Of a stretch of DNA of 64,000 bases, positions 12,168 through 49,494 are shown piece after piece. Numbering within the stretch: position 1 is the stretch's first letter; each line of letters opens with the position of its first letter. Source of the DNA: a candidate division FCPU426 bacterium (lineage in GTDB: Bacteria > Oederibacteriota > PGYV01 > Palsa-1178); contig CAWIXE010000001.1 in assembly GCA_963840035.1 (NCBI GenBank), positions 576,001-640,000 of the forward strand, written 5' to 3'. The position numbers and the translations under genes are program-made. The notes below the pieces were generated by a model, which saw nothing but the letters and a program-made list of their open reading frames with translations, made no database searches and had not been told where the DNA came from.

Positions 12168-12185
12168 TAATAAAAGGGGTAAAAA

Positions 12186-15904: not shown

Positions 15905-15923
15905 AAAGTGACAATAATTGACA

Positions 15924-16447
15924 GGCAGGACAATCATGAAGACCCTGAGTTTATCGCAGCGTGTAAGAAGAGCGATGCTGAAAAGGAACTGAGAGAAGCC
16001 AACTTAAGACGCGATTTTGGGGCAAAAGTTCTCAGTGAGCAAGGCAAAGATAAGACAATTGTGTTGGATAAGGTTGGTATGATATTCCTTGCGAGGTCTG
16101 GTAAGGCACTATATACGACCTCTTGCGAGATAGAGGTAGATGGCGGATACACGGCCGAGATAGGGTTTAGAGAGGACACATACCCGGAACTGTTGCGGAT
16201 ATTGAAACAAAGGTTACCTGAGCATTACAGGACAAAGATAACTGACAAACTTGAAAAGGAGTACACAAAGCCCATATACATACCCTGGTTCACAGCGTTT
16301 GACTTTCGAATCGAAGCAGTGTTAGGTTCGCCATTACACCATCAGGATGGCAGAGAGTTTATCCCTTTCTATGCCACTAAGGTTGAGGAAATTAGAGTGG
16401 AATACAGTAAACGTAAGAAGAGGCAGTCAAAAAAACCACAAGTTTAG
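15924..16447 (+). pseudogene. Hypothetical protein, apparently 5'-truncated by the IS
   Basis: The start called in the ORF track (GTG 15908) lies inside the right IR. Confidence 0.5.
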
Positions 16448-30242: not shown

Positions 30243-30542
30243 TATTTTATTACAAAAGGGTGTATACGTGATCTAAAATTACGGTACACGAATCATAGGA
30301 TTTGAGCGGTTTAAAGCAATCAGCCCGACTTACAAATGTGTCGCCGCCTCACTCCTCTAGATATACCCCCTTATATCATTTGCCACGGATATGTGGCTCA
30401 CGCCTAGTAAAGGCGGCGACACTTTTGTGGGCCGGAATAAAACGAATTTTCAATTTTCGAATTTCAATTTTGAATTGAATTCAAAAACATCATCGCTACA
30501 TCGTCAATTGACAATTGGCAATCGTCAATCCTTCGTTATCCC

Positions 30543-30570
30543 TTGACGGGCGTGCGTTTTCTGTTATACT
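30543..30570 (+). promoter_or_regulatory. Probable gcv operon promoter
   Basis: TTGACG-N16-TATACT with TGn. Confidence 0.6.
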
Positions 30571-30607
30571 AAAAAAAGTAAAAAATCAAAACAACAAAGG
30601 ACCTTAT

Positions 30608-31702
30608 ATGGATCTTAAAACAGTATTATATGACGAACACGTCAGGTTAAACGCGCTCATGGCGCCTTTTGCCGGATGGAACATGCCCATACATTACGGC
30701 TCCATAATCGAAGAAACCAAACACACCCGCACGGCCTGCTCTGTTTTTGACATATGCCACATGGGGGAATTCATCGTCAATGAAGACCCGGCCAAATCAA
30801 CCCTTGATGAGGCCATAACAAACCCTGTCATAAAGATGAAAAACCTCTCGTGCAAGTACGGTTTTTTGCTTAACGCCAACGGCACGGCAATCGACGACCT
30901 CATAGTATACCGGATAAAAGACGATAAGTGGATGATAGTGGTAAATGCCTCGAACATAGCGCGCGACGCCAAGGAAATAAGCGGGAACATCGCAAAAGAA
31001 GCGGCATTTGAAGACATCTCAGATAAGACGGTAAAGCTCGACGTGCAGGGCCCAAAATCATACGAAGTCATGAAGTCACTGGTAGGCGATTCCATAGGAA
31101 AACTGAAATATTTCGGGTTTGATACCTTTGACCTTCTCGGGGGTAAATACATAATCAGCAGGACCGGTTATACCGGGGAACTGGGTTATGAAGTTTATAT
31201 TGATAATTCAAAAGGCGTGGAACTCTGGAAAATGCTTTTGAAAAACCCGCTTGTCAAACCCGCGGGTCTGGGAGCGCGCGACATATTAAGGCTCGAAGCG
31301 GGCCTGCCGCTTTACGGGGATGAACTGACGGAAAGCTATACGCCCATAGAAGCGGGCATGGAAAGGTTCCTGGATTTTTCCAAGGATTTCACAGGAAAAG
31401 AAGCGCTTGAAAAGCAGAAAAGGGACGGCGTTAAAAGGATCCTTGCAGGCATTACTGTCGACGGCCGCAGGACGCCCAGGCATACCAATAAAATATTCAT
31501 AGCCGAGAACGAAGTCGGTGTTGTGACAAGCGGAGTGTTCTCGCCGTTTGTAAACAAAGGCATCGGTTTCGCGTACATAGATAAGGAATTTGCGGCCGAA
31601 GGCAGGGATATAGTCATAAAGCTGGACAAAGGCGAGGTTAAAGGCGTTGTAACACCGCCGCCGTTTGTGAAAAATACTTCTATAAGAACGCTGACGGCGT
31701 AA
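30608..31702 (+). CDS. gcvT: Glycine cleavage system aminomethyltransferase T
   Basis: FAGWNMP, FDICHMG, SRTGYTGELGYE, GLGARDILRLEAG. Confidence 0.97.
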   Translation: MDLKTVLYDEHVRLNALMAPFAGWNMPIHYGSIIEETKHTRTACSVFDICHMGEFIVNEDPAKSTLDEAITNPVIKMKNLSCKYGFLLNANGTAIDDLIVYRIKDDKWMIVVNASNIARDAKEISGNIAKEAAFEDISDKTVKLDVQGPKSYEVMKSLVGDSIGKLKYFGFDTFDLLGGKYIISRTGYTGELGYEVYIDNSKGVELWKMLLKNPLVKPAGLGARDILRLEAGLPLYGDELTESYTPIEAGMERFLDFSKDFTGKEALEKQKRDGVKRILAGITVDGRRTPRHTNKIFIAENEVGVVTSGVFSPFVNKGIGFAYIDKEFAAEGRDIVIKLDKGEVKGVVTPPPFVKNTSIRTLTA

Positions 31703-31842
31703 AATAATAATTACTAATTACTAATAAATGTGCGCGGTTGCGCTTTCTATTATAATATTGCAAGGGCAAAGCCCGCGGCAATAGACCATAATTAGTCATT
31801 AATCATCGGCATTTAAAACACAATATTTCAAGGAGGGCTAAG

Positions 31843-32229
31843 ATGAACATACCGGAAAAGTACTTTTTCACAAAGGAACACGAGTGGGTAAAAATAGAAG
31901 GCAATAAGGCGAAGGTCGGCATATCCGACTACGCGCAGCATAAGCTGGGGGACATAACTTTTGTTGACCTTCCCGCAGCGGGAAAGACGGTAAAACAGCT
32001 GGAAGTATTAACGGGGATAGAATCCGTGAAGGCAGCCAGCGATATCTATTCACCGGTTTCCGGAAAAGTAGTGTCAGTCAACAGCGCTTTAGAAGGCGCT
32101 CCTGAACTTGTCAACAAGTCGCCATATGAACAGGGCTGGATAGCCGAACTTGAAATATCCAATTCAGGGGAGACAGCCAACCTCATGGATTCAGCGGCAT
32201 ATAAGGCGTATGTAGCCGGCCTGGAGTAA
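31843..32229 (+). CDS. gcvH: Glycine cleavage system H protein
   Basis: HEWV...GISDYAQ...ESVKAASDIYSP lipoyl-Lys motif. Confidence 0.98.
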   Translation: MNIPEKYFFTKEHEWVKIEGNKAKVGISDYAQHKLGDITFVDLPAAGKTVKQLEVLTGIESVKAASDIYSPVSGKVVSVNSALEGAPELVNKSPYEQGWIAELEISNSGETANLMDSAAYKAYVAGLE

Positions 32230-32231
32230 TT

Positions 32232-33566
32232 ATGGCCAAATTTACCCCTCACACAGAATCTGAAATAAGGGAAATGCTTGCCGTAACCGGATCAAAAGAT
32301 ATTGACGCGCTTTTCGCGGACATTCCGGCGGGTTTAAAGCCGAAATCATTTGACCTGCCCGCGGGCATGACCGAGTATGAAGCCCTTTCAAAATTAAACT
32401 CCCTTGCTTCCAAAAACAAAACAAACCTTACTGTCTTTGCAGGCGGCGGATATTACGACCACTTCATACCCGCGGCAGTTGACGCCATATCCTCGCGCGC
32501 GGAATTTTATACCGCTTACACCCCTTACCAGCCCGAGGCTTCGCAGGGGACGCTTCAGGCCATATTTGAATACCAGACCATGATGGCGAAATTAACCGGG
32601 CTTGAAGTGTCAAACGCCTCATTATACGACGGCGGCACGGCGCTCTATGAGGCGATAGCCATGGCTGTGCGCACTAACAACAGGTCCAGGATAATCATAG
32701 ACAAAGGCGTGAACCCGCTTTACAGGCAGATAGTGAAGACATATGTCATAAACCAGGAAGTAGAAATAGTGGAAGTTGACCTTAAGGATGTTTCAACGGA
32801 CAGGGAGAAGATCAAAGCCCTGCTTGATGAAAAGGCATCGGCGCTTGTGCTCCAGACACCGAACTTTTTCGGAATGGCAGACGATTATACCGACCTCTTC
32901 GCGGCGGCGGAAGCAAAAGGAATTACAAAAATAGCGGTATTTTATCCCATGTCACTGGGCATCATGAAAACACCGGGGGAAATGGGCGCGGATATCGCGG
33001 TCGGCGACGGGCAGTCGCTCGGGCTCCCGCTTTCATTCGGCGGGCCGTACCTCGGAGTCATGGCCGCGTCAAAAGGATATGTCAGAAAAATGCCGGGCAG
33101 GATAGTGGGGGAGACAGTTGATAAGAACGGCACCAAGTGCTACGTGCTGACCTTACAGGCGCGCGAGCAGCATATACGAAGGGAAAAGGCCACGTCAAAC
33201 ATCTGCTCCAACCAGGCGCTCTGCGCCTTAAGGGCTGTCGTGTACCTTTCACTTATGGGCAAGGAAGGCTTCAGGAAAGCCTCACTTTTAAACCTGCAGA
33301 AGGGCGAGGAACTAAAAGAAGCCATAAAGAAAATAGCGGATGTAAAACCGGGCGCTACGTTTAATGAATTTACGGTTGACCTGAAAACAAACGCCGCGGA
33401 ATTCGCCAAAAAAATGGAAAGCAAAGGGTTCCTGGCGGGAGTGCCGGCTTCCATACATTTTCCGGAGATGAAAAACTACCTTGTGGTCGCAGCAACGGAA
33501 AAAAGAACGCAGGACGAAATAACCAAATATGCCGAAGCCTTTAAATCGGCCCTCAAGGGGGCTTAA
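32232..33566 (+). CDS. gcvPA: Glycine dehydrogenase subunit 1
   Basis: YTAYTPYQPEASQG, REQHIRREKATSNICSNQ. Confidence 0.97.
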   Translation: MAKFTPHTESEIREMLAVTGSKDIDALFADIPAGLKPKSFDLPAGMTEYEALSKLNSLASKNKTNLTVFAGGGYYDHFIPAAVDAISSRAEFYTAYTPYQPEASQGTLQAIFEYQTMMAKLTGLEVSNASLYDGGTALYEAIAMAVRTNNRSRIIIDKGVNPLYRQIVKTYVINQEVEIVEVDLKDVSTDREKIKALLDEKASALVLQTPNFFGMADDYTDLFAAAEAKGITKIAVFYPMSLGIMKTPGEMGADIAVGDGQSLGLPLSFGGPYLGVMAASKGYVRKMPGRIVGETVDKNGTKCYVLTLQAREQHIRREKATSNICSNQALCALRAVVYLSLMGKEGFRKASLLNLQKGEELKEAIKKIADVKPGATFNEFTVDLKTNAAEFAKKMESKGFLAGVPASIHFPEMKNYLVVAATEKRTQDEITKYAEAFKSALKGA

Positions 33567-33569
33567 AGC

Positions 33570-35009
33570 ATGGAAAATATATTCGAAATATCCGTAAAGG
33601 GAAGGCACGGGGTAGACCCGGGCTCCCCGGATGAAAGCTGCTTAAAAAAAGTGCCGTCAGGATTATTACGCTCCACCGAGAGTAGTCTGCCGGAGTTATC
33701 TGAACTTGACGTGGTCAGGCATTACACCAGGCTCTCCCAGCTTAATTTTTCCGTTGATACACATTTTTACCCGCTTGGTTCATGCACCATGAAATACAAC
33801 CCAAAAGTAAATGAAGCTGCGGCTGTAATCCCGGGATTCACCGGGCTGCACCCGTACGCGCCTTACATAGATGAAAATTCATCGCAGGGAGCCCTTGAAG
33901 TTGTGCATGATCTTTCAAAACAACTTTGCGAGATAACAGGCATGAAAAGATTCACCACGCAGCCATACGCCGGCGCGCACGGCGAACTTTTGGGAATACT
34001 GTTGATCGCGGCTTACCATAAGAATAAAGGCAATAAAAAGAAATACATAGTGGTGCCGGAGTCGGCGCACGGCACAAACCCGGCAAGCGCGGCAGTCGCG
34101 GGATATACCATTATTACCGTGCCGGTTGATAAAGAAGGCGGCATGGACCTCGCCGCGTTTAAGGAAAAAATGAATGATGAAGTCGCCGGAGTAATGATGA
34201 CTCTCCCTTCAACCCTCGGGGTATTTGAGAGGAAGATAACTGAGATAGTAGAGGCAGCCAGGAAGCACGACGCGCTCATGTATTACGACGGAGCGAACTT
34301 AAACGCCATCATGGGCAGGTTAAGGCCCGGAGACGTGGGTTTTGACATAGTTCACATAAACCTGCACAAGACTTTTTCAACCCCTCACGGCGGCGGAGGC
34401 CCCGGCTCAGGCGTGGTCGGCGTGTCAGAGCGGCTTGTTGATTTCATGCCGGTGCCCTACGTGGTAAAGGGCGCTGACGGAAAATTTTCCATGGATTTCG
34501 GGCTTAAGAATTCGATAGGAAAGATAGCTTCGTTCTTCGGCAATTTCGGGGTGATGCTTAAGGCTTACACATACAACCTGATGCTTGGAAAAGAAGGGTT
34601 AAAAGACGTGACTGACATGGCGGTCTTAAACGCCAATTATGTAATGGCAAAACTAAAAGGCATTTATGACCTTCCGTATGACAGGATATGCATGCATGAG
34701 GCTGTATTTACGGCAAAGAACCAGATTAAAAACGGGGTGCACGCGCTGGATATTGCAAAGGCTTTAATTGACCGCGGCATACACCCGCCCACCATATACT
34801 TCCCGCTTGTCGTGGAAGAAGCCATAATGATTGAACCCACTGAGACGGAGTCAAAGCAGGAAATGGACATTTTTATCGGCGTCATGAAGGAAATAGCTGA
34901 AACAAGCAAATACGAGCCGGAAAAGATAAAAAGTTCCCCTTCTAAGACGGCAATATCCAGGCCTGATGAGACTAAGGCGGCGAGGGAATTAAAGCTAACT
35001 TGTTTTTAA
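33570..35009 (+). CDS. gcvPB: Glycine dehydrogenase subunit 2
   Basis: PLGSCTMKYN, SAHGTNPAS, NLHKTFSTPHGGGGPG, IEPTETES. Confidence 0.97.
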   Translation: MENIFEISVKGRHGVDPGSPDESCLKKVPSGLLRSTESSLPELSELDVVRHYTRLSQLNFSVDTHFYPLGSCTMKYNPKVNEAAAVIPGFTGLHPYAPYIDENSSQGALEVVHDLSKQLCEITGMKRFTTQPYAGAHGELLGILLIAAYHKNKGNKKKYIVVPESAHGTNPASAAVAGYTIITVPVDKEGGMDLAAFKEKMNDEVAGVMMTLPSTLGVFERKITEIVEAARKHDALMYYDGANLNAIMGRLRPGDVGFDIVHINLHKTFSTPHGGGGPGSGVVGVSERLVDFMPVPYVVKGADGKFSMDFGLKNSIGKIASFFGNFGVMLKAYTYNLMLGKEGLKDVTDMAVLNANYVMAKLKGIYDLPYDRICMHEAVFTAKNQIKNGVHALDIAKALIDRGIHPPTIYFPLVVEEAIMIEPTETESKQEMDIFIGVMKEIAETSKYEPEKIKSSPSKTAISRPDETKAARELKLTCF

Positions 35010-35023
35010 AACAGATAAAGACA

Positions 35024-35094
35024 GGGAAAGTTTTAAGTTTAAAGTTTGAAGATGAGGCTGTTCTTATCTTAAATCTTAAAACTTCAAACTTCCC
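35024..35094. repeat. Inverted heptamer array (AAGTTTN)n/(NAAACTT)n
   Basis: Same family as 39807-39879. Confidence 0.8.
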
Positions 35095-35111
35095 TTTCTC
35101 AGAAGGAACTC

Positions 35112-35912
35112 ATGCAAACTAAAACCGTCCGCTTCATCCCTTTCGCCTACTACTCGCCCTATGAGAACATGGCCATAGATGAGTTCCTTATATCATATTA
35201 TGAAAAAACAAAAATTCCGGTATTAAGGCTCTATTCATGGCGGCCAGCCGGCATATCAGCAGGAAAAAACCAGGACGTAAATCTCGACATAGATATTGCC
35301 GCATGCAAAGCCGCGGGAATTCCCGTAGTCAGGCGGTTAACCGGAGGCGGCGCCATATTCCACAAGAACGAATTAACCTACTCCATTGCCTGCTCTGACA
35401 CGGACTTTATCGGCAAGAAAGCTGGGGTTAAAGAATCGTTTGAAAACCTGAATGCCTTTATACTTAAAATGTATTTTAAATTCGGGCTTGAAGCTTCGTA
35501 CGGCAAAGATGCATTCCCGGGTGAAAAGAGTCTGGGCGCGAGGCAGGGGTTCTGCTTTGCCGGCAATGAGGAATATGACATCATAATTAAAGGAAAAAAG
35601 ACCGGAGGCAACGCGCAGTACAGGCGCAGGGAGATAATATTTCAGCACGGGTCAATACCCCTGGATGAAAATGAGGACGCGCAGAAATACTTCAAATGCC
35701 CGGTAAACAGGGATAACTTCACATCGCTCGATAGGCTGCTCGGAAGGGAAGTAACAGCGGGAGAAGTTGCGGCGAACCTGGGGGCGGCGTTCATGGAAAC
35801 GTTTGGATGCGATTTAAAGGAAGAGACGCTGTCCATGGATGAAAAACGAGGAGCCATCGGCATAATGACGTCTAAATATGCTACGGATAACTGGAACTTA
35901 AAAAAAATATAA
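35112..35912 (+). CDS. Lipoate-protein ligase/octanoyltransferase (LipM/LplA family)
   Basis: NMAIDE, VVRRLTGGGAIFH, KKTGGNAQ, QHGSI. Confidence 0.92.
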   Translation: MQTKTVRFIPFAYYSPYENMAIDEFLISYYEKTKIPVLRLYSWRPAGISAGKNQDVNLDIDIAACKAAGIPVVRRLTGGGAIFHKNELTYSIACSDTDFIGKKAGVKESFENLNAFILKMYFKFGLEASYGKDAFPGEKSLGARQGFCFAGNEEYDIIIKGKKTGGNAQYRRREIIFQHGSIPLDENEDAQKYFKCPVNRDNFTSLDRLLGREVTAGEVAANLGAAFMETFGCDLKEETLSMDEKRGAIGIMTSKYATDNWNLKKI

Positions 35913-35998
35913 TGAATAATGAAGGTGTGTGGTGGCACGTGTTATTTAAAAAGACTTCCGCGTGCCGCTCTTGCAGGGTATGAATGTTTACGGCCACT

Positions 35999-36067
35999 GT
36001 AGAGAGGGGGCTTGCCCCCTCTCAAACGCAGGCCCAATGCCTGAGAGGGGGCAAGCCCCCTCTCTAC
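35999..36067. repeat. GTAG-type REP doublet
   Basis: GTAGAGAGGGGGCTTGCCCCCTCTC ... GAGAGGGGGCAAGCCCCCTCTCTAC. Confidence 0.85.
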
Positions 36068-36135
36068 GAAACATGTGTGGGTAGCTGCAAATGGCAGTTC
36101 AAATAGGATGTAATGATTCAAATAAAAGGAAAAAC

Positions 36136-37023
36136 ATGCAAAAGCCAACGTACGCCAAAAAGAAGATAGACTTCAAACAGATGCACGAAACCGAATCAGC
36201 TCTTGCGGGGCTTAAACTTCATACCGTCTGCCACCAGGCGCGCTGTCCCAATATATCAGAATGTTTTGGCAGGGGCACGGCTACGTTCCTCATACTCGGC
36301 GATACCTGTACGAGGAATTGTTCGTTCTGCAACGTAAAAAAAGGTGTTCCTGCTGCAGCGGACTTAAGCGAACCTGCGAGAATCGCCGAAGCTGTGGAAA
36401 AACTTAAATTGAAATACGCCGTAATAACTTCTGTGACGAGAGATGATATGGAAGACGGTGGAGCTGGGGTTTTTGCTGAGGTAATAAAACAGATTAATCA
36501 CAGGTCCCAAATCCCAAATCCCAAAGAAGGGCAATTGAATTCACGCAAAGTCAAAGTTGAGGTGCTTGTTCCTGATTTTAAAGCTGACAGAAATGCTATA
36601 AAAACAGTCCTGGACGCCGGGCCTGATGTATTTGCCCATAACGTTGAGACAGTGCCTTCATTATATAAGGTAAGGAAAGGCGCGGATTATAAACGGAGCC
36701 TTGAGGTGTTAAGGCTGGCAAAGGAAATATCGCCGAAGGCAGTGACAAAATCAGCGGTGCTGCTGGGGCTCGGCGAAAAAGAGGAAGAGCTGCGGACAGT
36801 ATTTGACGACCTGGTAAAAGCGGGCTGTGATTACATAAGCATCGGGCAATACCTGCAGCCTGACAAGCAACATCATGAAGTGGTGGAATATATAAAGCCG
36901 GCAGTGTTTGATTGGTATAAAAAACAGGCGTATAAAGCCGGATTTAAGCATGTCGAGAGCGGAGTATGGGTAAGAAGTTCATATATGGCGGAAACGTATA
37001 ATAGTACGCAAAAACAGTTTTAG
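36136..37023 (+). CDS. lipA: Lipoyl synthase
   Basis: CHQARCPNISEC, CTRNCSFC, VRSSY. Confidence 0.97.
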   Translation: MQKPTYAKKKIDFKQMHETESALAGLKLHTVCHQARCPNISECFGRGTATFLILGDTCTRNCSFCNVKKGVPAAADLSEPARIAEAVEKLKLKYAVITSVTRDDMEDGGAGVFAEVIKQINHRSQIPNPKEGQLNSRKVKVEVLVPDFKADRNAIKTVLDAGPDVFAHNVETVPSLYKVRKGADYKRSLEVLRLAKEISPKAVTKSAVLLGLGEKEEELRTVFDDLVKAGCDYISIGQYLQPDKQHHEVVEYIKPAVFDWYKKQAYKAGFKHVESGVWVRSSYMAETYNSTQKQF

Positions 37024-37025
37024 AT

Positions 37026-37107
37026 TTCGTAGGGGCGAGCCGGTGGCTCGCCCGGTTTTAGACCCTCGGTCTGAGGGCCGGGCGAGCCACCGGCTCGCCC
37101 CTACGAA
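37026..37107. repeat. GTAG-type REP doublet
   Basis: GTAGGGGCGAGCCGGTGGCTCGCCC ... GGGCGAGCCACCGGCTCGCCCCTAC. Confidence 0.88.
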
Positions 37108-37203
37108 GACAAACAATAAAAATACCCGGGTTGCAATACGGTAAAATTTGAGCTATTATAATAATGAAACTATTTTGAATGTAACAAACGGAGGGTAATA
37201 ATA

Positions 37204-38490
37204 ATGTATGATATTCTAATCATCGGTTCCGGGCCTGCAGGCCATACCGCGGCTCTGGAAGCGGCAAAACTAAAATTAAAGACCGCTGTAATAGAGAGGG
37301 ACCCTTCAAAACTCGGGGGCGTGTGCTTAAATGAGGGGTGCATACCTTTAAAAGGGCTGCTTCACTATTCCCAGCATGAGACCGATTATCACGCCATACG
37401 CGGCAACGTTATGCAGAGGGTCCAGTTCATAAAGGACGGACTAAAGGCAAGGATGCTCGGAGCGGGAATAGAAATAATAGAGGGCGACGCAAAGTTTACA
37501 TCGGCGTCAGCCGTGGAAGTGCGCGGTAAAAAAATTGAGGCAAAGCATATAATCATAGCGGTCGGTTCATCCCCCAAAAAAATATTCAGCAATCCCGCGG
37601 TGCTTTCACCGGATAAGATATTTGAACTCGATGAAGTGCCGAAAAAAGCCCTTATAATCGGAGGAGGCGTCATAGGCTGTGAGTATGCGTCTTTTCTTAA
37701 TAATATAGGCGTAACAGTTGAAATAGTGGAACTCTTGGATACCATACTCTTCGGCGAAGACGAGGAAGCGGTAAGGACGCTTTCGCGCGAGTTTAAGAAG
37801 AAAAAGATAAGGCTGTATGAAAAAAGCGAAGTGACCGGAATCAGCACTGACGGAGTGGTAAATATTAAAAGCGGGGACACAATAATAACCGACAAGTATG
37901 ACATGATTATTGAGGCCATAGGCAGGAGGCCAAACACCGGCAGGCTGGGACTTGAGGCCGCCGGCATAGAAACTGACCAGCGCGGATTTATTAAGGTAAA
38001 TAACAGCATGCAGACCACTGCGGCAGGGGTTTATGCCATAGGCGACTGCATACCCACCCCGATGCTCGCTTATACCGGGTACAAGGAAGCGGAAGCGGCG
38101 ATAAACCACATTACAAAAGGTTTTCAGGGGAACCTGGACTACGGTACGGCGCCGAAACTGGTATTCTCATGCCCGCAGCTTGGGTCCACCGGATTAAGTG
38201 AGGCAAAGGCAAAAGAGCAGGGAATAAATTATAAAATCCATAAATACTTCTTTAAAGCCATAGGCAAAGCCGTGGTCGAAGGCAAAGATGCCGGGTATTT
38301 AAAGATGTTGGTAGATACCGACAGAAACGTTGTAATAGGCGCGACGGCTGTGGGAAGCGAGATAACGGAGCTTATAAACGAGCTCACGGTCATCATAAAA
38401 GCGCAGGTTAAAGTTGATATCCTTAAGGAATGCATGCACATACATCCATCCTACTCGGAAATAATTATAGAGGCGCTCAACTTCGGGTAA
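37204..38490 (+). CDS. lpdA: Dihydrolipoyl dehydrogenase
   Basis: IGSGPAG, GGVCLNEGCIP, GGGVIGCE, HPSYSE; gcv context. Confidence 0.9.
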   Translation: MYDILIIGSGPAGHTAALEAAKLKLKTAVIERDPSKLGGVCLNEGCIPLKGLLHYSQHETDYHAIRGNVMQRVQFIKDGLKARMLGAGIEIIEGDAKFTSASAVEVRGKKIEAKHIIIAVGSSPKKIFSNPAVLSPDKIFELDEVPKKALIIGGGVIGCEYASFLNNIGVTVEIVELLDTILFGEDEEAVRTLSREFKKKKIRLYEKSEVTGISTDGVVNIKSGDTIITDKYDMIIEAIGRRPNTGRLGLEAAGIETDQRGFIKVNNSMQTTAAGVYAIGDCIPTPMLAYTGYKEAEAAINHITKGFQGNLDYGTAPKLVFSCPQLGSTGLSEAKAKEQGINYKIHKYFFKAIGKAVVEGKDAGYLKMLVDTDRNVVIGATAVGSEITELINELTVIIKAQVKVDILKECMHIHPSYSEIIIEALNFG

Positions 38491-38492
38491 GC

Positions 38493-38699
38493 GCCTCAGA
38501 AATCCACGTTAAGGCTCCAGAAATCCTCCTCTTATCCTCCTTTCTGGAACAAAGGAGGACGATTAGTTGAGTAGTCATATACTGGAGACGGAACATACAA
38601 CGAAAAAATTGATGTCTGTTACGCCTCAAGTCCTGATACAAGTGAAGTAATCGTCTCCCTTTGTTTCAGAAAGGGAGATAAGAGAGGGATTTCTGAGGC
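38493..38699. repeat. Long palindromic intergenic element
   Basis: AGAAATCC...CCTTTCTGGAACAAAGG...ACGATT is complementary to AATCGT...CCTTTGTTTCAGAAAGG...GGATTTCT. Confidence 0.75.
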
Positions 38700-38724
38700 T
38701 CTAACGATGACGGTGAGACACGGG

Positions 38725-39798: not shown

Positions 39799-39806
39799 GA
39801 TAAAGC

Positions 39807-39879
39807 AAGTTTTTAGTTTTAGGTTTGAAGATGCAGGTCCGCAGGCTGTCTAAATCTTAAAACTAAAAACTTCAAACTT
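39807..39879. repeat. Inverted heptamer array between convergent genes
   Basis: AAGTTTT TAGTTTT AGGTTTG AAG ... CTTAAAA CTAAAAA CTTCAAA CTT. Confidence 0.8.
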
Positions 39880-39890
39880 TTCTATCTGCA

Positions 39891-41897: not shown

Positions 41898-41971
41898 ACC
41901 TTCCTCCTTATATATAAGCGTTATAGTGATTGTATTTTAGAGGGAAATAAAAGTCAATAAGGGAATTACTT

Positions 41972-42053
41972 TGATTCTAGATTCCGGATTCTAGATTTTG
42001 GATTAATGGCAAGTTCCAAACAATCCAGAATCAAGAATCCGGAATTTAGAATT
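41972..42053. repeat. Inverted heptamer array (GATTNNN)n/(NNNAATC)n
   Basis: GATTCTA GATTCCG GATTCTA GATTTTG GATT ... AATCCAG AATCAAG AATCCGG AATTTAG. Confidence 0.85.
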
Positions 42054-42108
42054 GACTTTATGCAGCCCTTATGTTATATTTAACCAAATGGTTAAACTAA
42101 ACGGTTAA
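42052..42108 (+). promoter_or_regulatory. Promoter with TetR-type operators
   Basis: TTGACT-N17-TATATT; TTAACCAAATGGTTAA (42080-42095) and a second imperfect copy. Confidence 0.7.
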
Positions 42109-42136
42109 TTAACATTAAACCCGGAAGTGAAGGCAA

Positions 42137-42241
42137 ATGAAGAATAAAAAAGCAAAGCCCGCAATCAAAAGGAAACCAAAGAAAGTTAAAAGCACAAACA
42201 TAAAACAGGTGGCTAAGGCTATTGCTGCCTGGGTTTATTAG
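42137..42241 (+). CDS. Small basic ORF, 34 aa
   Basis: MKNKKAKPAIKRKPKKVKSTNIKQVAKAIAAWVY; fills the gap between promoter and tetR. Confidence 0.4.
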   Translation: MKNKKAKPAIKRKPKKVKSTNIKQVAKAIAAWVY

Positions 42242-42249
42242 GAGGGCGC

Positions 42250-42897
42250 GTGGTTAAGAAAAGCATAAAAGGGCAGGATGAGGGCAGGACTAAGGACAGG
42301 ATACTGAAGGCCGCCATAGGGGAATTTGTCGAATACGGGTTTTACGGGGCCAGGACGCAGCGCATCGCCACACGGGCAGGGGTGAATAAAGCACTCCTTC
42401 ATTATTACTTTACAAACAAGGAAAACATATACGAACAGGTTTTGCAGACCGTGGCAGGAGCCATATTTCAGCGCCTGTCCACCATGAGCGAGGAACCCAT
42501 GGAACCGCGTGAGAAGATTTCTCAGATTATCGATATATACGTTGATGTTTTCACAAATTACAGCGATAACCTGAAAATAGTATTATATGAGGTCATGAGG
42601 GGCGGGGAAATACTCAGGAAGGTAATCTCTTCAAAGGCAAAGCAGATATACCCAACCTTTAAAAAAATAGAATCATATTTTAAAAACGAGATGAAAAAAG
42701 GCACCATAAGAAAATTCAGCGTCATCCACCTTTTAATAAGCATGGTAAGCCAGATGGCTCCCGTGTATGTGGGAAGGCAGATGATCGGAAAAGTAGCCGG
42801 GGCAATAGGCTTAGACAGGCTCCTGGGTGACGCGATAGTAAATGACAGGAAGAAGTTCGTTATGGAGCTTATAATGAACGGTATTAAAAAAGATTGA
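42250..42897 (+). CDS. TetR/AcrR-family regulator
   Basis: RILKAAIGEF...GF...IATRAGVNKALLHYYF. Confidence 0.95.
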   Translation: MVKKSIKGQDEGRTKDRILKAAIGEFVEYGFYGARTQRIATRAGVNKALLHYYFTNKENIYEQVLQTVAGAIFQRLSTMSEEPMEPREKISQIIDIYVDVFTNYSDNLKIVLYEVMRGGEILRKVISSKAKQIYPTFKKIESYFKNEMKKGTIRKFSVIHLLISMVSQMAPVYVGRQMIGKVAGAIGLDRLLGDAIVNDRKKFVMELIMNGIKKD

Positions 42898-42999
42898 GGA
42901 TAGTTGATCGTGGATTGCAGATTAATGAACGGGAAACCGTAAAACAAACGGGCCATAAATTGTTTATTAATCCGCAATCTTCAATCTGCTATCTACAAT
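42892..42999. repeat. Inverted heptamer array (GATT/AATC family)
   Basis: GATTGAG GATAGTT GATCGTG GATTGCA GATT ... AATCCGC AATCTTC AATCTGC TATCTAC AAT. Confidence 0.8.
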
Positions 43000-43015
43000 A
43001 ACAAAGGAGGTATAT

Positions 43016-43810
43016 ATGGACATTAAGAAAATTGAAAAAGCAAGGCCGGTTATAGCGGCGGTGGTGATTTTGACCATACTGGGGTTCTGGCTGCTGCCTA
43101 AAGTATTTGTGGATAAGTCTCATGTGAGGGCTTCGGGGACTGTCGAGATAAAGGAAGTGGATGTCTCCTCCAGAATATCAAGCAGGGTCACGGCCTTAAA
43201 AAAGGACGAGGGCCAGGAAGTAAAAAAAGGCGAGTTAATGGCCGTGCTAGACGATTCCATAGTAGCGGCACAGCGCGACGCCGCTCAGGCCATGTATAAT
43301 AACGCGGCTGACATATACACAAGGATGAAGAACCTTTTTTCATCCGAATCCGTTTCCCAGCAGCAGTTTGACGCGGCAAGGGCAGGGTACATATCAGCCA
43401 TGTCACAGTTAAAACAGGCTGAAGTGATGACAGATGAGGCGTCCGTTAAAGCGCCGTGGAGCGGGATAATTCTGAAAAAACACGTGGAAGAAGGGGAACT
43501 TGTATCGCCTAACTCGCCGCTTTTCACCATCGGCGACCTTTCAGAGGCGAAGATTACCATATACGTCCCTTTAATGGAAATGACCGTGCTGAAATACGGA
43601 ATGAAAGCAGCGGTAAAAATAGACGCGTATAAGAACAAGTCGTTTGAGGGAAAAATAACGTACATATCGGGCGCGGCTGAATTTACGCCGAAAAACGTCC
43701 AGACACAGGATGAGCGCATTAAAGAAGTATTTGAAGTGCAGGTAACAGTGCCAAACCCTGACGGGATATTAAAACCGGGGATACCGGCTGATGTGGAGAT
43801 AAAAATATAA
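43016..43810 (+). CDS. HlyD/YbhG-like periplasmic adaptor
   Basis: SGTVE...EGQEVKKG...AEFTPKNVQT...LKPG. Confidence 0.92.
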   Translation: MDIKKIEKARPVIAAVVILTILGFWLLPKVFVDKSHVRASGTVEIKEVDVSSRISSRVTALKKDEGQEVKKGELMAVLDDSIVAAQRDAAQAMYNNAADIYTRMKNLFSSESVSQQQFDAARAGYISAMSQLKQAEVMTDEASVKAPWSGIILKKHVEEGELVSPNSPLFTIGDLSEAKITIYVPLMEMTVLKYGMKAAVKIDAYKNKSFEGKITYISGAAEFTPKNVQTQDERIKEVFEVQVTVPNPDGILKPGIPADVEIKI

Positions 43811-43814
43811 ATGC

Positions 43815-43888
43815 GAGCCCAGGGGGAACAGCCCAAAGCTCAGGTATGTTTAAAACAACTTGGGCTATGGGCTATTAGCTTTGGGATC
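43815..43888. repeat. Inverted heptamer array (AGCCCAN/TGGGCT family)
   Basis: Same family as 49416-49494. Confidence 0.7.
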
Positions 43889-43899
43889 ACAGGAGTTGT

Positions 43900-44802
43900 A
43901 TGGAAACCGTAATCAGCGTAACAGGGTTGTATAAGAGCTTTGGCAGCGTTAAGGCCGTGGACGGGGTTGACTTCGCTGTCAACCGCGGGGAGATATTTGG
44001 CATTATCGGGCCTGACGGCGGGGGCAAGACCACCACTCTGCGGTTGCTTTCAGGGATAATGAAACATGAGCAGGGCAGCGCAATTATCCTTGGAAGAAAA
44101 CTTCCTGAAGAGGCTGAAGGCATAAAAGAACACATAGGCTATATGTGCCAGAGGTTTTCATTATATACTGACTTAACCGTCGCTGAAAATGTAACTTTTT
44201 TTTCAGAGGTTTACCAGATAGAAAAAAAAGTGCTTGAGGAAAGGCTCGAACCGCTCCTGAAAATGACAAGGCTCGCGCCTTTTAAAGACAGGCTTGCCGG
44301 AAATTTATCCGGCGGCATGAAACAAAAACTGGCCTTAATGTGCACATTAATTCACCGCCCTGAAATACTTTTTCTTGACGAGCCGACCACGGGAGTGGAC
44401 CCGGTATCGCGCAGGGAATTCTGGGAGATTCTCCAGCAGATACACGCCGACGGCGTGACCATTGTAGTAACCACGCCGTATATGGACGAGGCTGAACAGT
44501 GCTCGCGCATCGCTCTGATGTTCAAAGGCAGGATAATTGCCATGGACACGCCGAGGAACATGAAAAAGGCGTTTAACGGAATAGTCCTTGAGGCGCATCC
44601 CGAGGACTGCGCGGGTTTCTTAAGCCTTATAAAAACGTCTTCATATATTAAGGACTGGCAGCAGCTGGGGGAAAGGTTCCATATAGTTTTCAATGACGAA
44701 GCCGGGGCGGAGGATTTTACGCAAAAAGCAGGCCCATGCGCCAACACACGCAGGATAGCGGCAAGCGTGGAGGATGTTTTTGTGGAGCGCATTAAAACAT
44801 AG
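43900..44802 (+). CDS. ABC-2 exporter ATP-binding protein
   Basis: GPDGGGKT, LSGGMKQK, LDEPTTGVDP. Confidence 0.95.
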   Translation: METVISVTGLYKSFGSVKAVDGVDFAVNRGEIFGIIGPDGGGKTTTLRLLSGIMKHEQGSAIILGRKLPEEAEGIKEHIGYMCQRFSLYTDLTVAENVTFFSEVYQIEKKVLEERLEPLLKMTRLAPFKDRLAGNLSGGMKQKLALMCTLIHRPEILFLDEPTTGVDPVSRREFWEILQQIHADGVTIVVTTPYMDEAEQCSRIALMFKGRIIAMDTPRNMKKAFNGIVLEAHPEDCAGFLSLIKTSSYIKDWQQLGERFHIVFNDEAGAEDFTQKAGPCANTRRIAASVEDVFVERIKT

Positions 44803-44877
44803 TCACAGGACCCAAGTCCCATGACCCAGGTCAGGGTTAGTGATGTAACTTGGATCCTGGGTCATGAGTCTTGAGAC
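44802..44877. repeat. Inverted heptamer array (GACCCAN/TGGGTC)
   Basis: GTCACAG GACCCAA GTCCCAT GACCCAG ... TTGGATC CTGGGTC ATGAGTC TTGAGAC. Confidence 0.8.
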
Positions 44878-44891
44878 AAACAAGGAGTTTT

Positions 44892-45839
44892 ATGGCTACA
44901 TCCGTAAAAGCAGACCGCCTACAGCGTAAGTTCGGCGATTTTACCGCCGTTGACTCCATATCCTTTGAAGTGGAGAAGGGCGAGGTATATGGATTTTTGG
45001 GGGCTAACGGCGCGGGCAAGACCACTACTATCAGGATGTTGTGCGGATTGCTTGAGCCAACTTCAGGAGACGCCATGGTCGCCGGATTTTCAATAAAAAA
45101 AGAGCCTGATGAGGTAAAGAAAAGGCTCGGATACATGTCTCAAAAGTTCTCCCTGTATCCGCTGCTAAATGTGAAGGAAAATATTGATTTTTACGCGGGC
45201 ATATACGGTTTAACAGACGCGGAAATTTTGAAAAGGACGCCTGAACTGTGCGAACTGCTGGAACTTACGGAATTCGCGGACAGGCCGGTCGGTGAAATGC
45301 CGGGCGGGTTAAAGCAAAGGGTTTCGCTTGCCTGCGCCATCGCCCACAAACCCGAGATAGTATTTCTGGACGAACCTACTGCAGGGGTGGACCCGATACT
45401 GCGCAGGCGTTTTTGGGAAATAATACGGGTGCTTGCCGACGGCGGGACGACCGTATTTGTCACGACGCATTACATGGACGAGGTGGAGCACTGCAACAGG
45501 ATAGCGCTCATGCACTCAGGCCGGATAATAAGGGAAGGCACAATATCCCAGATAAAAAAATCGGTCTTTTCAAAACCGATACTTGAAACAGAAACGGATT
45601 TCCCTGTGAAAGCGTTCGAATTGCTGGAGGCTGAAAAGGGGACGCTCGGCGATATTTCAATGCACGGCGCGCTTCTTCACGTGATACCTGCCGCTGATAT
45701 TTCCGCGGCAAAAGAGGCCATGGAGAGGATACTAACGGCTGCGTCCTTAAGATTCACAAAACCAGAGGAAGTGGAGCCGACTATGGATGACGTGTTTGTG
45801 AATCTGGTGAAACAGTATGAGGGCGGGAGTAAATCATGA
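44892..45839 (+). CDS. ABC-2 exporter ATP-binding protein
   Basis: GANGAGKT, LDEPTAGVDP, TTHYMDE; AAGGAG RBS. Confidence 0.95.
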   Translation: MATSVKADRLQRKFGDFTAVDSISFEVEKGEVYGFLGANGAGKTTTIRMLCGLLEPTSGDAMVAGFSIKKEPDEVKKRLGYMSQKFSLYPLLNVKENIDFYAGIYGLTDAEILKRTPELCELLELTEFADRPVGEMPGGLKQRVSLACAIAHKPEIVFLDEPTAGVDPILRRRFWEIIRVLADGGTTVFVTTHYMDEVEHCNRIALMHSGRIIREGTISQIKKSVFSKPILETETDFPVKAFELLEAEKGTLGDISMHGALLHVIPAADISAAKEAMERILTAASLRFTKPEEVEPTMDDVFVNLVKQYEGGSKS

Positions 45840-45843
45840 AAAC

Positions 45844-45933
45844 AGTCTCAGTGATCTCAATGATCTCAGAAGTCTCAGCAGGCGTTTTTAGGACGCTCAT
45901 TGAGACCTCTGAGATCACTGAGATTATTGAGAC
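45844..45933. repeat. Inverted nonamer array (NTCTCANNN)4/(NNNTGAGAN)4
   Basis: Same family as 47126-47225. Confidence 0.85.
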
Positions 45934-45950
45934 TAAAGAAGGAGGGCGTC

Positions 45951-47114
45951 TTGGCTGAAGACAAAGGCAGTTTAAACCCAGCGCGCATAATGCCTGTCAT
46001 GCGCAAGGAGTTTCTTCATATCGTGCGCGATCCGCGCTCGCTGGCCATCGCGCTGCTTGCGCCTGTGATATTGCTGGTATTATACGCGTACGCCGTGACA
46101 TTTGACATAAAGAAGATAGACTTGGGCGTCGTGGATTACGACAACTCGTCAATGTCCAGGGAACTGGTGCAGAAATTCACATCAAGCGGGTACTTTGAGA
46201 TAAATCAAAGCTGCGTAAATTCAATGGAGAAATGCGTTGAGACACTGCGCTTAAACGGGATAAAAATGATTCTTATTATACCTCGCGGAATGTCAACGGA
46301 CATAAAAAGGAACAGGGACGTCAGGATACAGATGATAGGTGACGGGTCCGAGGCAAACACCGTGGCCATCGGCATAGGTTACGCCGGGGCTATCGTTGCC
46401 CAGCAATCCACAAAAATTATGCTTGAAGAAGTTCGCTCGAGGGGTTTTAACCCGAAGGTAATCCCCATGGTACAGCCTGTGCCGAGGGTATGGTATAACC
46501 CGGAACTGAAATCAACCAATTACATAGTGCCCGGGCTGGCCGCGATAATAATGATGCTTATCTCGGCGCTGTTAACGTCGCTTACAATAGTCCGCGAAAA
46601 GGAAAATAACACTTATGAGCAGCTGGTGTCAACGCCGCTTAAACCCCTTGAGCTCATGATAGGGAAGATAACGCCTTACATACTGCTCTGCTTAATTGAC
46701 GTGGCAATAATAGTGGCTGTCGGCGTACTTTGGTTCCATGTGCCGTTTAAGGGCAATTACATTACGCTCACGGTATTCTCGATACTTTTTCTTTTCTGCG
46801 CGCTGGGCTTAGGTCTTTTAATATCCGCAGTGGCGCCGAACCAGCAGGTGGCTGTCATGGGAACCGCGCTTGGAACGTTGCTGCCTTCGATACTTTTATC
46901 GGGGTTTGTATTTCCGATTGCGTCCATGCCCGGCATCATACAGGCGATAAGCTATGTGGTTCCGGCGAAATATTTTATGGTCGCGCTTCGTACCATATTT
47001 TTAAAAGCGGATACCGGCATAATGACTCTGTGGCGCGAGGGGCTTTTCCTCCTGTTTTTCGGGGTATTATTCCTGGCGATTTCCGCAAAGAGGTTTAAAA
47101 AGACGATTGATTAG
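45951..47114 (+). CDS. ABC-2 permease (YbhS-like)
   Basis: KEFLHIVRDPR, WYNPELKS, LSGFVFPI. Confidence 0.93.
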   Translation: MAEDKGSLNPARIMPVMRKEFLHIVRDPRSLAIALLAPVILLVLYAYAVTFDIKKIDLGVVDYDNSSMSRELVQKFTSSGYFEINQSCVNSMEKCVETLRLNGIKMILIIPRGMSTDIKRNRDVRIQMIGDGSEANTVAIGIGYAGAIVAQQSTKIMLEEVRSRGFNPKVIPMVQPVPRVWYNPELKSTNYIVPGLAAIIMMLISALLTSLTIVREKENNTYEQLVSTPLKPLELMIGKITPYILLCLIDVAIIVAVGVLWFHVPFKGNYITLTVFSILFLFCALGLGLLISAVAPNQQVAVMGTALGTLLPSILLSGFVFPIASMPGIIQAISYVVPAKYFMVALRTIFLKADTGIMTLWREGLFLLFFGVLFLAISAKRFKKTID

Positions 47115-47125
47115 TATGGAAGAAC

Positions 47126-47225
47126 AGTCTCAATGATCTCAATGGTCTCAGAGGTCTCAATAGAAAAGGCGAAAGAACAGGCCTTAACTTTTGAGATCAT
47201 TGAGATTGCTGAGACTATTGAGACT
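47126..47225. repeat. Inverted nonamer array
   Basis: AGTCTCAAT GATCTCAAT GGTCTCAGA GGTCTCAA ... TTGAGATC ATTGAGATT GCTGAGACT ATTGAGACT. Confidence 0.85.
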
Positions 47226-47236
47226 GCATAAAGGCG

Positions 47237-48388
47237 GTGTTTGTGTTCAATATTAAGGAGTTTTTCGGGCCTGTAAAGCATGTGATGAAAAAAGAATTCA
47301 TAGAGATGAAAAAATCCAAACTTATCGCCATACTTATAGTCGCGCCGATAATTCAGGCTATCATATTCGGCTTTGTGGCTACCACTGACATACTTCATGT
47401 GCCCACCATGATATGCGACGAGGACGGCTCAGCCATGAGCAGGAAGCTGACGGATAAATTTTTAAACAGCGAGTATTTTAATATAACCATGGTGACGCGG
47501 GACCCTAAGGCGATTCAGGGCGAGTTGGGCGCGAATAGGGCCAGAGTTTGCGTAAGGATACCTGTGGATTTTGAGGAACTCATAAAGAAAGGCAAAAGGG
47601 TGCCTGTACAGGTCATCGGCGACGGCACTGACTCAAACAGCGCCACTCAGACCATGGTAAGGGCGCAGCTTATGATAAACGCCTTTTCCGGGGAGGTTTT
47701 TAAGGACAAACTTGCCATGATGAAATCCACCATCGGAGACCTGCCTTCCATAACACTTCATGAGAGGGTATGGTATAACCCGGAGCTTAAAAGCGCGAAT
47801 GTCATGGTGCCCGGCGTCATAGGCCTGATACTTGCCATAGTGACCATGGTGATAATGTCGGTATCAATAGTAAGGGAAAAGGAGTCGGGAAACATAGAGC
47901 AGATGGTTGTAAGCCCGATAACGCCGCTGCAGATAATAGCCGGGAAGATAATTCCTTACATAGCCATCGGGTTAATAGACGTCATCATAGTGGTAATAAC
48001 GTGCGGAGTGGTATTTAAAACGCCGTTCGAAGGCAGCTTCGCGCTCCTGCTTACCCTGTCATTTTTCATGATCATGGTTAACTTGGGCGTGGGCATATTC
48101 ATATCCACCATATCCACCACGCAGCAGCAGGCCATGTTCTCCGCCATATTCTTCATGCTGCCGAACATACTGCTCTCAGGCTTCCTTTTCCCGATAAAGA
48201 ACATGCCGGTGATACTGCAGTGGCTGACATACATAATACCAATGAGGTATTATATGGTAATAATCAGGGGAATATTTTTAAAAGGGCTGGGTTTCTTTGA
48301 ATTGCTGCCGGAAACCTTCGCGCTCTTTATATATGGGGCGGTAGTATTTACCATGGCGATAAAGGCATTCAGAAAGACCGTAAGTTAA
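47237..48388 (+). CDS. ABC-2 permease (YbhR-like)
   Basis: WYNPELKS, REKESGNIEQ, LSGFLFPI. Confidence 0.93.
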   Translation: MFVFNIKEFFGPVKHVMKKEFIEMKKSKLIAILIVAPIIQAIIFGFVATTDILHVPTMICDEDGSAMSRKLTDKFLNSEYFNITMVTRDPKAIQGELGANRARVCVRIPVDFEELIKKGKRVPVQVIGDGTDSNSATQTMVRAQLMINAFSGEVFKDKLAMMKSTIGDLPSITLHERVWYNPELKSANVMVPGVIGLILAIVTMVIMSVSIVREKESGNIEQMVVSPITPLQIIAGKIIPYIAIGLIDVIIVVITCGVVFKTPFEGSFALLLTLSFFMIMVNLGVGIFISTISTTQQQAMFSAIFFMLPNILLSGFLFPIKNMPVILQWLTYIIPMRYYMVIIRGIFLKGLGFFELLPETFALFIYGAVVFTMAIKAFRKTVS

Positions 48389-48407
48389 TCACATTATAGA
48401 AATTTTG

Positions 48408-48525
48408 GTAGCCGCACCCTCTACGCCTCACCGGGGTGCGTACGCAGGGGTGTGAACAGGCAATGGTTTGCGTCCGTCAATTCCATATTTAGGCGCAGGC
48501 CGGTGGGACGCAGGCCTGCGACTAC
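48408..48525. repeat. Degenerate GTAG-type REP doublet
   Basis: GTAGCCGCA...TGCG ... CGCA...TGCGACTAC. Confidence 0.65.
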
Positions 48526-48618
48526 GAAATCCAACTGTGAGTCAGCTTAGGAACATATTGTTTATGTGCATATTCTACTGTCTTGAAAATTACAAAAAAA
48601 TCATCTATAATTAAACAC

Positions 48619-49401
48619 ATGAAGCGCATACTCATAATCTTAGTCATCACAGCCTGTATCCCTTTCAGCCTTCTGGCGAAGAACTCTTTTAAAGATGGAA
48701 ACAAACTCTATCTGCAGGGCGATTATGCCAATGCCTTAAATGAGTATAACCAGTTCATCCAGGATAAACCCAAAAAATTTGAAGGTTATTATAACGCCGG
48801 AAACGCGCTTTTCAGGCAGGAGCAGTATGAGCAGGCTCTCGGGATGTATAATAAGGCGCTGGAATTAAACCCCAAAGATGAGGATACAAAGGTAAATATT
48901 GAAGTAACTCAGGAAAAGATAAAGAACCAGCCTAAAGACAAGAAAGAGCAGGATAAGAAAAAGCAGGAACAGGACAAGCAGAACCAGCAAAACCAGCAGG
49001 GACAGAACGGACAGAATAAGCAGGGGGAAAAGGGGCAGCAGGGCAAAGAGCAAAGTGCTAAGGATAAGGGTGAGGATAAGGATAAGAAGGGCGACAAACA
49101 GCAGGGGCAAAAGCCTGGTGATAAGCCGCAGCAAAACGGGCAGCAGGGGCAGCAGGCACAGCAGCCTGAAAAGCAGCCTCCTTCAGGCATGACAAAGGAC
49201 GAAGTGCAGGCGCTTATGAATACCATGCAGAACCAGGAAAAGCAGTACAGGGGTTATTTTGGAAAGCAGAACCAGCCTAAGAACAATGACCCTTCCAATA
49301 TGTCTCCAATGGAACTCATGCAGTACATGCAGCAGCAGATGATGGACCCGAACGTGACGCAGCAGGCGCCGAAGAACAGCGGGAATGAGAAGGATTGGTA
49401 G
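48619..49401 (+). CDS. BatC-like TPR protein with Gln/Lys-rich linker
   Basis: Signal peptide; YNAGNALFR TPR; Q-rich region; C-terminal EKDW. Confidence 0.8.
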   Translation: MKRILIILVITACIPFSLLAKNSFKDGNKLYLQGDYANALNEYNQFIQDKPKKFEGYYNAGNALFRQEQYEQALGMYNKALELNPKDEDTKVNIEVTQEKIKNQPKDKKEQDKKKQEQDKQNQQNQQGQNGQNKQGEKGQQGKEQSAKDKGEDKDKKGDKQQGQKPGDKPQQNGQQGQQAQQPEKQPPSGMTKDEVQALMNTMQNQEKQYRGYFGKQNQPKNNDPSNMSPMELMQYMQQQMMDPNVTQQAPKNSGNEKDW

Positions 49402-49415
49402 AGTGAAGGGGCGTA

Positions 49416-49494
49416 AAGCCCAGAGATCAGAGCCCAAAGCTCAAGGGGGTTATGGTCTGAAAGCATTTCCTTGGGCTATGAGCTTTGGGCTTTG
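49416..49494. repeat. Inverted heptamer array (AGCCCAN/TGGGCT family)
   Basis: AGCCCAG AGATCAG AGCCCAA AGCTCAA ... TTGGGCT ATGAGCT TTGGGCT. Confidence 0.8.

Follow-up and report, generated by a model that had tools for sequence, protein, structure and literature searches.

Background

Short tandemly repeated repetitive (STRR) heptamers occur in cyanobacteria. Here we describe arrays of 7-base and 9-base units that fill gene junctions in a window of 64,000 nucleotides (contig C1, positions 576,001-640,000; window positions count from its first letter) from the genome of a candidate division FCPU426 bacterium (3.46 Mb, 98% complete), together with their counterparts in the rest of that genome, in relatives and in metagenomes. 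An array usually consists of a left arm of three to five units, a spacer and a mirror-image right arm; we call it filled if the arms enclose a small gene and empty if they do not. The arrays are probably gene-less derivatives of a selfish cassette carrying a gene for a four-helix-bundle protein, with arms that have been shuffled among copies. In our best reading this cassette is related to the intervening sequences (IVS) of 23S rRNA genes.

The available text of Rehm et al. 2015 (PMC4692102) describes intergenic heptamer arrays with the unit GGGAATC in Xanthomonas and GGGGA(C/T)T in Nostoc. Four units are preferred, 70 inverted-pair cases occur among the 186 repeats of one strain, and repeats next to stop codons have one orientation on the coding strand, those upstream of genes the other. 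That text treats one G-rich family per genome, interprets it as quadruplex and makes no link to four-helix-bundle genes. Our arrays resemble these in their dispersed 7-base units, their mode of four units, their orientation at gene ends and their inverted pairs, and the empty layout is, by the same text, already in print for one family. They differ in comprising about 20 families, mostly without G-runs, in including a 9-base family and in having filled copies with four-helix genes. The G-rich, quadruplex-capable unit of the Rehm and STRR arrays is lacking in most families here, and a quadruplex reading cannot be general for heptamer arrays. New here are the coexistence of about 20 families, the 9-base variant, the controls with repetitive extragenic palindromes (REPs) and terminators, and the independence of partner arms.

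In Coxiella the 23S IVS has heptamers before the S23p gene, and RNase III cuts there (Warrier et al., PMC4990558, available text). As far as that text goes, IVS bearing an open reading frame (ORF), as in Coxiella and Leptospira, are like our elements in protein family, heptamer terminal inverted repeats, patchy horizontal distribution and ORF decay. They are unlike them in location: the copies described here lie between protein genes, none in rRNA, and are mostly gene-less, and the single 23S rRNA gene (3,022 nt) has no arm in C2:155,000-161,500 (C2 and C3 being further contigs). An S23p/TIGR02436 ORF between terminal inverted repeats is found in filled copies elsewhere; the copies in the window are empty.

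Beggiatoaceae have intergenic TAACTGA heptamers of two to six units, oriented at gene starts and patchy across phyla (MacGregor 2015, PMC4679880, available text). That text presents a single unit in direct repeats and identifies no protein partner, whereas ours are mostly inverted pairs of many families. REPs and REP doublets forming hairpins (REPINs) are also abundant intergenic hairpins and landing sites for insertion sequences (IS); REPs are described as IS targets in the available text of PMC1525189. Unlike them, the arrays have no GTAG/CGTC foot and no adjacent Y1 gene (REP-associated tyrosine transposase, RAYT), and they show periodic arms and tight anchoring at stop codons; the foot and a flanked RAYT gene are found in separate REP families of the genome. 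Avd of diversity-generating retroelements resembles PF05635 (PMC10053308, available text) and has a structural likeness to the cargo protein family. Unlike in such retroelements, no reverse transcriptase was found, and arm variation extends beyond adenines and includes C/T. No paper joining a four-helix gene, heptamer arms and empty arrays was found in the mostly open-access literature searched. The excess of 7-base repeats and the role of S23p/four-helix proteins are both treated as open questions (PMC4692102 and PMC4990558, available text).

Results and discussion

Array families in the window and the genome

The initial annotation reported arrays at eleven junctions of the window, and these proved to be real. 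A periodic inverted-repeat detector pairs 8/11 sites (30445, 35028, 39808, 41973, 44811, 45846, 47128 and 49421), and family profiles built from the genome also pair eight (35031, 39810, 41973, 42893, 44810, 45844, 47126 and 49417). Of the eleven, eight form clean inverted pairs, another two have a decayed arm on one side, and the last combines arms of two families (Table 1). Genome-wide, the detector found 277 seven-base pairs with gaps of at most 80 nt against none in a block-shuffled copy. After merging, and with 24 pairs of other periods excluded, the working set held 281 pairs (273 of period 7, one of period 8 and seven of period 9). The pairs form 30 clusters, 20 of which have at least three members. 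The profiles detect 947 arms in the genome and none in shuffled DNA. Arms span about 9% of intergenic DNA and occur at 568 of 2,885 junctions, about one in five, so that the element reshapes gene boundaries at a large scale.

An arm measures about 30 to 35 bases, is built of 7-base or 9-base units and has fixed ends. With a search minimum of three units, 316 arms hold three whole units, 530 four, 90 five and only 11 more than five (936/947 with three to five). Because units are position-specific and the inner flanks fixed (ATTGCGG comes last in 25/36 arms and ATTAA next in 28/36), the arms are modules with defined ends. Most family profiles have no G-runs, such as ATTTT[CA][AT] and [TCA]AATTAC. 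The initial annotation had proposed a conserved periodicity with free sequence; the periodicity stands, while "free" was overstated, each family having a fixed unit alphabet and fixed ends.

Position relative to genes

Gene calls were made in this analysis, and their start sites are approximate. On these calls co-directional junctions hold 235 arrays, convergent ones 23 and divergent ones 17, the last mostly between back-to-back predicted promoters; six lie inside gene calls. Co-directional arrays begin within 20 nt past the stop codon in 206/227 cases (median 4 nt), and this holds for 45/63 of those whose junction has over 60 nt of additional DNA. Two REP families, taken as control, begin this close in only 6/40 and 6/34. 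Lone left-type arms likewise hug stops (123/144) and lone right-type arms precede starts (40/76 within 30 nt), and eight arms lie within 40 nt 3' of tRNA genes. A promoter is predicted on 53/101 sides, with its -35 box within 30 nt of an arm in 36 against 25 expected. Overall, arms adjoin the upstream gene at its 3' end and, on the other side, the ribosome-binding site (RBS) or promoter of the following gene. Insertion into the final codons, with a stop brought in by the element, is ruled out, since protein tails match those of relatives (35 the same, 12 longer and 10 shorter, n = 57) and the native stop is kept.

Since the arrays begin at stops and form long stems on folding, they might be taken for ordinary intrinsic terminators or for products of slippage that became fixed by chance. 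Polymerase slippage has been proposed as the origin of heptamer repeats (Mrazek 2007, as cited in the available text of PMC4679880), and some arrays have grown to 10-94 units, showing that slippage does act on them. Nonetheless, only 25/235 have at least five T in the 9 nt past the stem, the short G+C-rich stem with U tract of an intrinsic terminator is not what the arrays have, and arrays occur inside operons. Slippage is contradicted by lengths that stop sharply at five units with fixed ends, and by families that recur at dozens of unlinked sites with fixed polarity. Terminators and slippage are thereby already largely refuted, and we regard them as very improbable. Local amplification of arms was also seen as tandem whole elements of 13-base period and as one 94-unit array (Table 1).

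Genome-wide, 37 arms lie inside long gene calls. The one in lipA is translated in lipoyl synthase as a 12-residue in-frame insertion, absent from 7/7 aligned relatives (the alignment has eight rows, with one genome present twice).

Filled copies with four-helix-bundle genes

The initial annotation suggested that the arrays might be empty sites of a small-gene cassette system, and filled copies here, in relatives and in metagenomes agree with this. The enclosed gene is indeed a four-helix-bundle gene (TIGR02436, S23p/Avd-like); no GxxExxY gene, the other suggested cargo, was found in the genome. Of eight TIGR02436 matches in the genome, four have facing arms: C1:780642, C1:786179 and C2:519599 by detector and C2:219362 by eye. 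Facing detector pairs stand at 6/22 four-helix loci of five relatives. A metagenome set of 73 homologues, reduced to 66 loci after seven with short flanks were dropped, gave facing arms at 33 (25 seven-base, five eight-base and three nine-base; a few are doubtful). Judged by eye, several of these arms resemble families found here (AGCTCAA, ATTGAAG, GTCCCAA and AGCTGAA) with matching polarity, and three of the four families occur in the window. Filled and empty forms have arms and polarity in common. At one orthologous junction, between genes that we take from a motif to be nuoD and nuoH, relative G010 has a four-helix gene with arms and our genome an empty pair. Two correlations also favour the cassette: the arm unit tracks protein identity (rho = 0.21, permutation p about 0.007, 29 metagenome rows left of 33 loci after one doubtful and three short rows were dropped), and array density tracks four-helix gene count (rho = 0.65, p = 0.008, 15 relatives with 11-96 kb sampled each). 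Both are overstated, as the relatives are other genera and kin are non-independent.

Among seven cargo candidates between lone facing arms, two are four-helix genes, two are IS30 copies and one is a REP cluster; the other two are host genes that may be bracketed by chance. The 9-base variant also forms inverted pairs in other phyla; at least 10 of at least 109 listed loci of the window's 9-base pattern have an inverted partner, one of them being a long tandem array. A subgroup of four-helix genes has an upstream array and no downstream arm (C2:73399, C3:492520 and C2:1127095); the upstream neighbour of the gene at C2:73399 is the same in relatives G003 and G006.

Orthologous junctions and RNA stems

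Operon junctions were compared with those of 16 family- and order-level relatives. In 49/71 comparisons the relative's junction is at most 30 nt long, and 4/71 have detector-positive pairs, all of another family than here (including another 9-base family). More broadly, array families differ between lineages at the same junction: where relatives have arrays at junctions occupied here, 14/15 are of another family. Overall, the junctions of relatives are mostly short or hold another family. Since relatives mostly have no arrays at matching spots, a conserved control of the window operon is unlikely.

These comparisons bear directly on the suggestion, also made initially, that the arrays are mRNA hairpins tuning operon stoichiometry. 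In this view they would be RNase III sites or exonuclease blocks selected by the host to set the protein ratios of operons. Several observations are in line with it. All five internal junctions of the operon are filled, and runs of at least five occupied junctions occur six times against 0.6 expected; as occupied junctions cluster along the genome, a run of five is uncommon without being unique. Relatives show mild hot spots, with arrays at 15/110 junctions occupied here against 12/208 others (p = 0.02). Sense duplexes are 0.7 kcal/mol stronger than antisense ones (-26.1 against -25.5 kcal/mol, p = 0.022). An RNase III gene is present, and solo arms are oriented with transcription.

Most other features of the stems speak otherwise. 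Left arms fit the right arm of another copy as well as their own (19.2 for own against 19.1 for swapped partners, p = 0.23, n = 230), and duplex energies agree with this (p = 0.95, n = 210). Sense-strand mismatches are G·U in 180 and A·C in 150 cases (p = 0.11), against 13 and 0 in terminator-like controls. This independence of partner arms means that the hairpins are not selected as paired RNA stems. Given also the short orthologous junctions and the 17 divergent arrays, the tuning of stoichiometry is not supported as the reason for the arrays' existence, and host-selected hairpins are an unlikely explanation overall.

Spacers and the origin of arm diversity

Spacers are nearly all unique, with homology shared by only 25/217. 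In one family 156 of 211 arms are distinct, and the order of units varies among five elements whose spacers are near-identical. A folding energy of -10 kcal/mol or better is reached by 42/235 spacers, and terminator-like hairpins and REPs are found among the spacers. These findings, and the family differences at shared junctions, would also be expected if arms were written or rewritten in place, unit by unit, around existing intergenic DNA with no gene-losing cassette as ancestor. Against this, neighbouring units are weakly linked in most families, as copying of whole arms predicts, a reverse transcriptase was not found, and recombination among many copies yields an equal pattern. We therefore judge writing in place to be improbable, and prefer gene loss from a cassette.

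Sixteen spacers, across two arm families, have a TATTATAAT core (C1:689105, C1:775830, C1:780259, C3:38659, C3:39172 and 11 more). By eye, the spacer of the gcvT-gcvH site has the same core and resembles this cluster. Similar cores occur in non-periodic hairpin elements at operon junctions of relatives G006 and G007, some beside assembly gaps.

Candidate movers

Another possibility is that the arrays are non-autonomous copies, similar to MITEs (miniature transposable elements with inverted repeats), moved by a resident IS30 or Y1/RAYT transposase. Two IS30 types have 5/7 copies in arms (Table 1), 3/3 in AATTACT left arms at one position and 2/4 in GATTCT, and the genome has eight Y1 transposase matches. 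Yet the IS30 copies have their own ends inside the left arm, which makes the arms targets, and homologues in six other genomes sit outside 7-base arms; IS30 is thus ruled out as mover, and the arms offer it landing sites. Two more distant IS30 types have 0/10 copies in arms. Y1/RAYT is ruled out as well, as no arm occurs within 300 nt of any of its eight matches and GTAG-type REPs flank several of them. Target-site duplications show no excess over shuffled flanks in 266 elements, and only 12 of these have a near-identical twin (90%), mostly a near neighbour. Target duplication, whole-length homology and an autonomous partner with matching ends, all typical of MITEs, are not found for the arrays, and such a MITE-like origin is most unlikely. 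No mover enzyme was found among the candidates examined (reverse transcriptase, Y1 and IS30).

Proposed origin and mode of action

Under the preferred reading, in which the arrays derive from a four-helix cassette that lost its gene, this cassette would hold a small four-helix-bundle gene (TIGR02436) between a left arm and its mirror image on the right, and elements would be gained at gene boundaries, separately per lineage. The arm would be the binding site of a five-subunit protein ring, about one unit per subunit, that would read the fixed unit positions and ignore the variable ones. Solved structures of four-helix relatives (2GSC and 2RLD) have five chains each, and the title of the 2GSC paper speaks of five four-helix bundles. 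By analogy, five-chain relatives and four to five units per arm are suggestive of a ring that binds its own arms. Four to five units, fixed next to free positions and no pairing between partners would be the expected trace of one unit per subunit. Loss of the gene would leave empty arrays, and units may be shuffled between copies by recombination or resynthesis. As the cassette has no transposase, we infer a host or trans-acting recombination step, which would act on single-stranded nucleic acid at gene ends. RNase III cutting or any other effect on mRNA would arise as a by-product.

A number of observations weigh against this origin. Three of the eight four-helix genes have an upstream array only and one has none (by eye). 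At the junction filled in G010, the arm families differ between the filled and the empty version. The largest families are unfilled in the genome (ATTTTCA with 75 pairs, AGCCCAA with 22, AACTGAA with 21 and TCCCAAA with 20), and a four-helix gene was found within 800 nt of flank at none of at least 109 listed loci of the 9-base pattern, only 80 of which have full flanks. A reverse transcriptase (PF00078) has no match in the 98% complete genome, and with few twins and no target duplication no recent jump was caught.

With about 20 arm families side by side and cognate gene-arm pairs, the genome readily lends itself to binding tests whose specificity controls are already in place. A wider proposal is conceivable though doubtful: a widespread transposase-free element with an Avd-like five-ring and five phased repeats, whose arms are rebuilt unit by unit at 3' ends, with about 20 arm codes per genome including a switch from 7 to 9 bases. 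If true, such a ring element would explain the long-noted bacterial excess of 7-base repeats.

Individual sites of the window

The sites lie around a glycine-cleavage and lipoate cluster and an operon of TetR, HlyD, two ATPases and two permeases (Table 1). Every internal junction of this operon, from tetR to the second permease, has an array between stop and RBS (5/5), as originally stated. The family pairings proposed initially hold for 35024/39807, 43815/49416 and 45844/47126; the supposed GATT pair at 41972/42892 consists of GATTCT[GA] and ATTG[TCA][AGT]G. Decay is evident at 43815, where the left arm scores 13.8 bits against 33.5 for the right, and at 31708, where the right arm scores 9.5 bits against 27.5 for the left. 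Rfam gave zero matches at gathering score within 29,000-51,000.

In four relatives the gcvT-gcvH junction is 1-2 nt long, and in four relatives checked gcvPB and the lipoate ligase gene overlap or lie at most 15 nt apart. Relatives have gene overlaps, plain spacers or arrays of other families between the tetratricopeptide repeat (TPR) gene and YoaA/DinG. A gcvT promoter is predicted at 30543, 3' of the hybrid site. The array at 41973 lies between two back-to-back predicted promoters with -35 boxes at 41957 (minus) and 42052 (plus).

Table 1. Coordinates of array sites, host operon and related features (positions without contig refer to the window; ABC, ATP-binding cassette).
Feature	Position	Strand	Description
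Hybrid site	30445..30530		left arm of ATTTT[CA][AT] family at 30445-30476; second arm of other unit at 30505-30530
gcvT-gcvH junction	31704..31808		AATTACT-family left arm on stop codon; right arm decayed
gcvPB to lipoate-ligase junction	35028..35092		empty pair, TTT[TG][AT]AG family
Single arm inside lipA	36498..36525	+	[TG]C[CA]CAA[AG] family
Convergent junction	39808..39879		empty pair, TTT[TG][AT]AG family
Divergent junction	41973..42053		empty pair, [GA]ATTCT[GA] family
Host operon (context, outside element)	42250..48388	+	TetR regulator, HlyD-family adaptor, two ABC ATPases, two ABC-2 permeases
tetR to HlyD-family gene junction	42893..43003		empty pair, ATTG[TCA][AGT]G family
HlyD-family gene to first ABC ATPase junction	43816..43887		AGC[CT]CA[AGT] family, left arm decayed
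First to second ABC ATPase junction	44810..44876		empty pair, [AT]C[CT]CA[ATG]G family
Second ATPase to first permease junction	45844..45935		empty pair, 9-base [AG][GA]TCTCA[AG][TAC] family, four units per arm
First to second permease junction	47126..47225		empty pair, 9-base [AG][GA]TCTCA[AG][TAC] family
TPR gene to YoaA/DinG helicase junction	49417..49494		empty pair, AGC[CT]CA[AGT] family
Locally amplified runs	C1:277700-278400, C1:370600-371300, C2:243860-244550, C2:1613143-1613894
IS30 copies in arms	C3:54935, C3:228271, C2:827273, C2:169461, C2:388106

Other elements in the region

A single-copy structured element of about 90 nt lies at 30334-30424, with no Rfam match at gathering score. 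It is found in 16/24 relatives at 82-96% identity, and gcvT lies 3' of such an element in 7/11 relatives' loci examined. Its fold has a long closing stem, two inner hairpins and two-sided changes at 6/23 pairs. The element has an invariant hairpin whose loop is rich in pyrimidines, and a consensus promoter lies upstream in the window. It is a candidate for an undescribed small RNA or leader.

GTAG-type REP hairpins occur at 35998-36070, 37029-37106 and 48409-48528, and by visual comparison the Y1/RAYT-like genes at C1:355,675 and C2:115,574 have similar hairpins on their flanks. Between lpd and the next gene, at 38500-38710, lies a 200-nt non-periodic inverted repeat with a folding energy of -100 kcal/mol. 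Finally, the stretch 4866-16447, in which a tmRNA precedes genes for a large serine recombinase and a cytosine methyltransferase as well as IS481-like genes, is a probable island integrated at the tmRNA.

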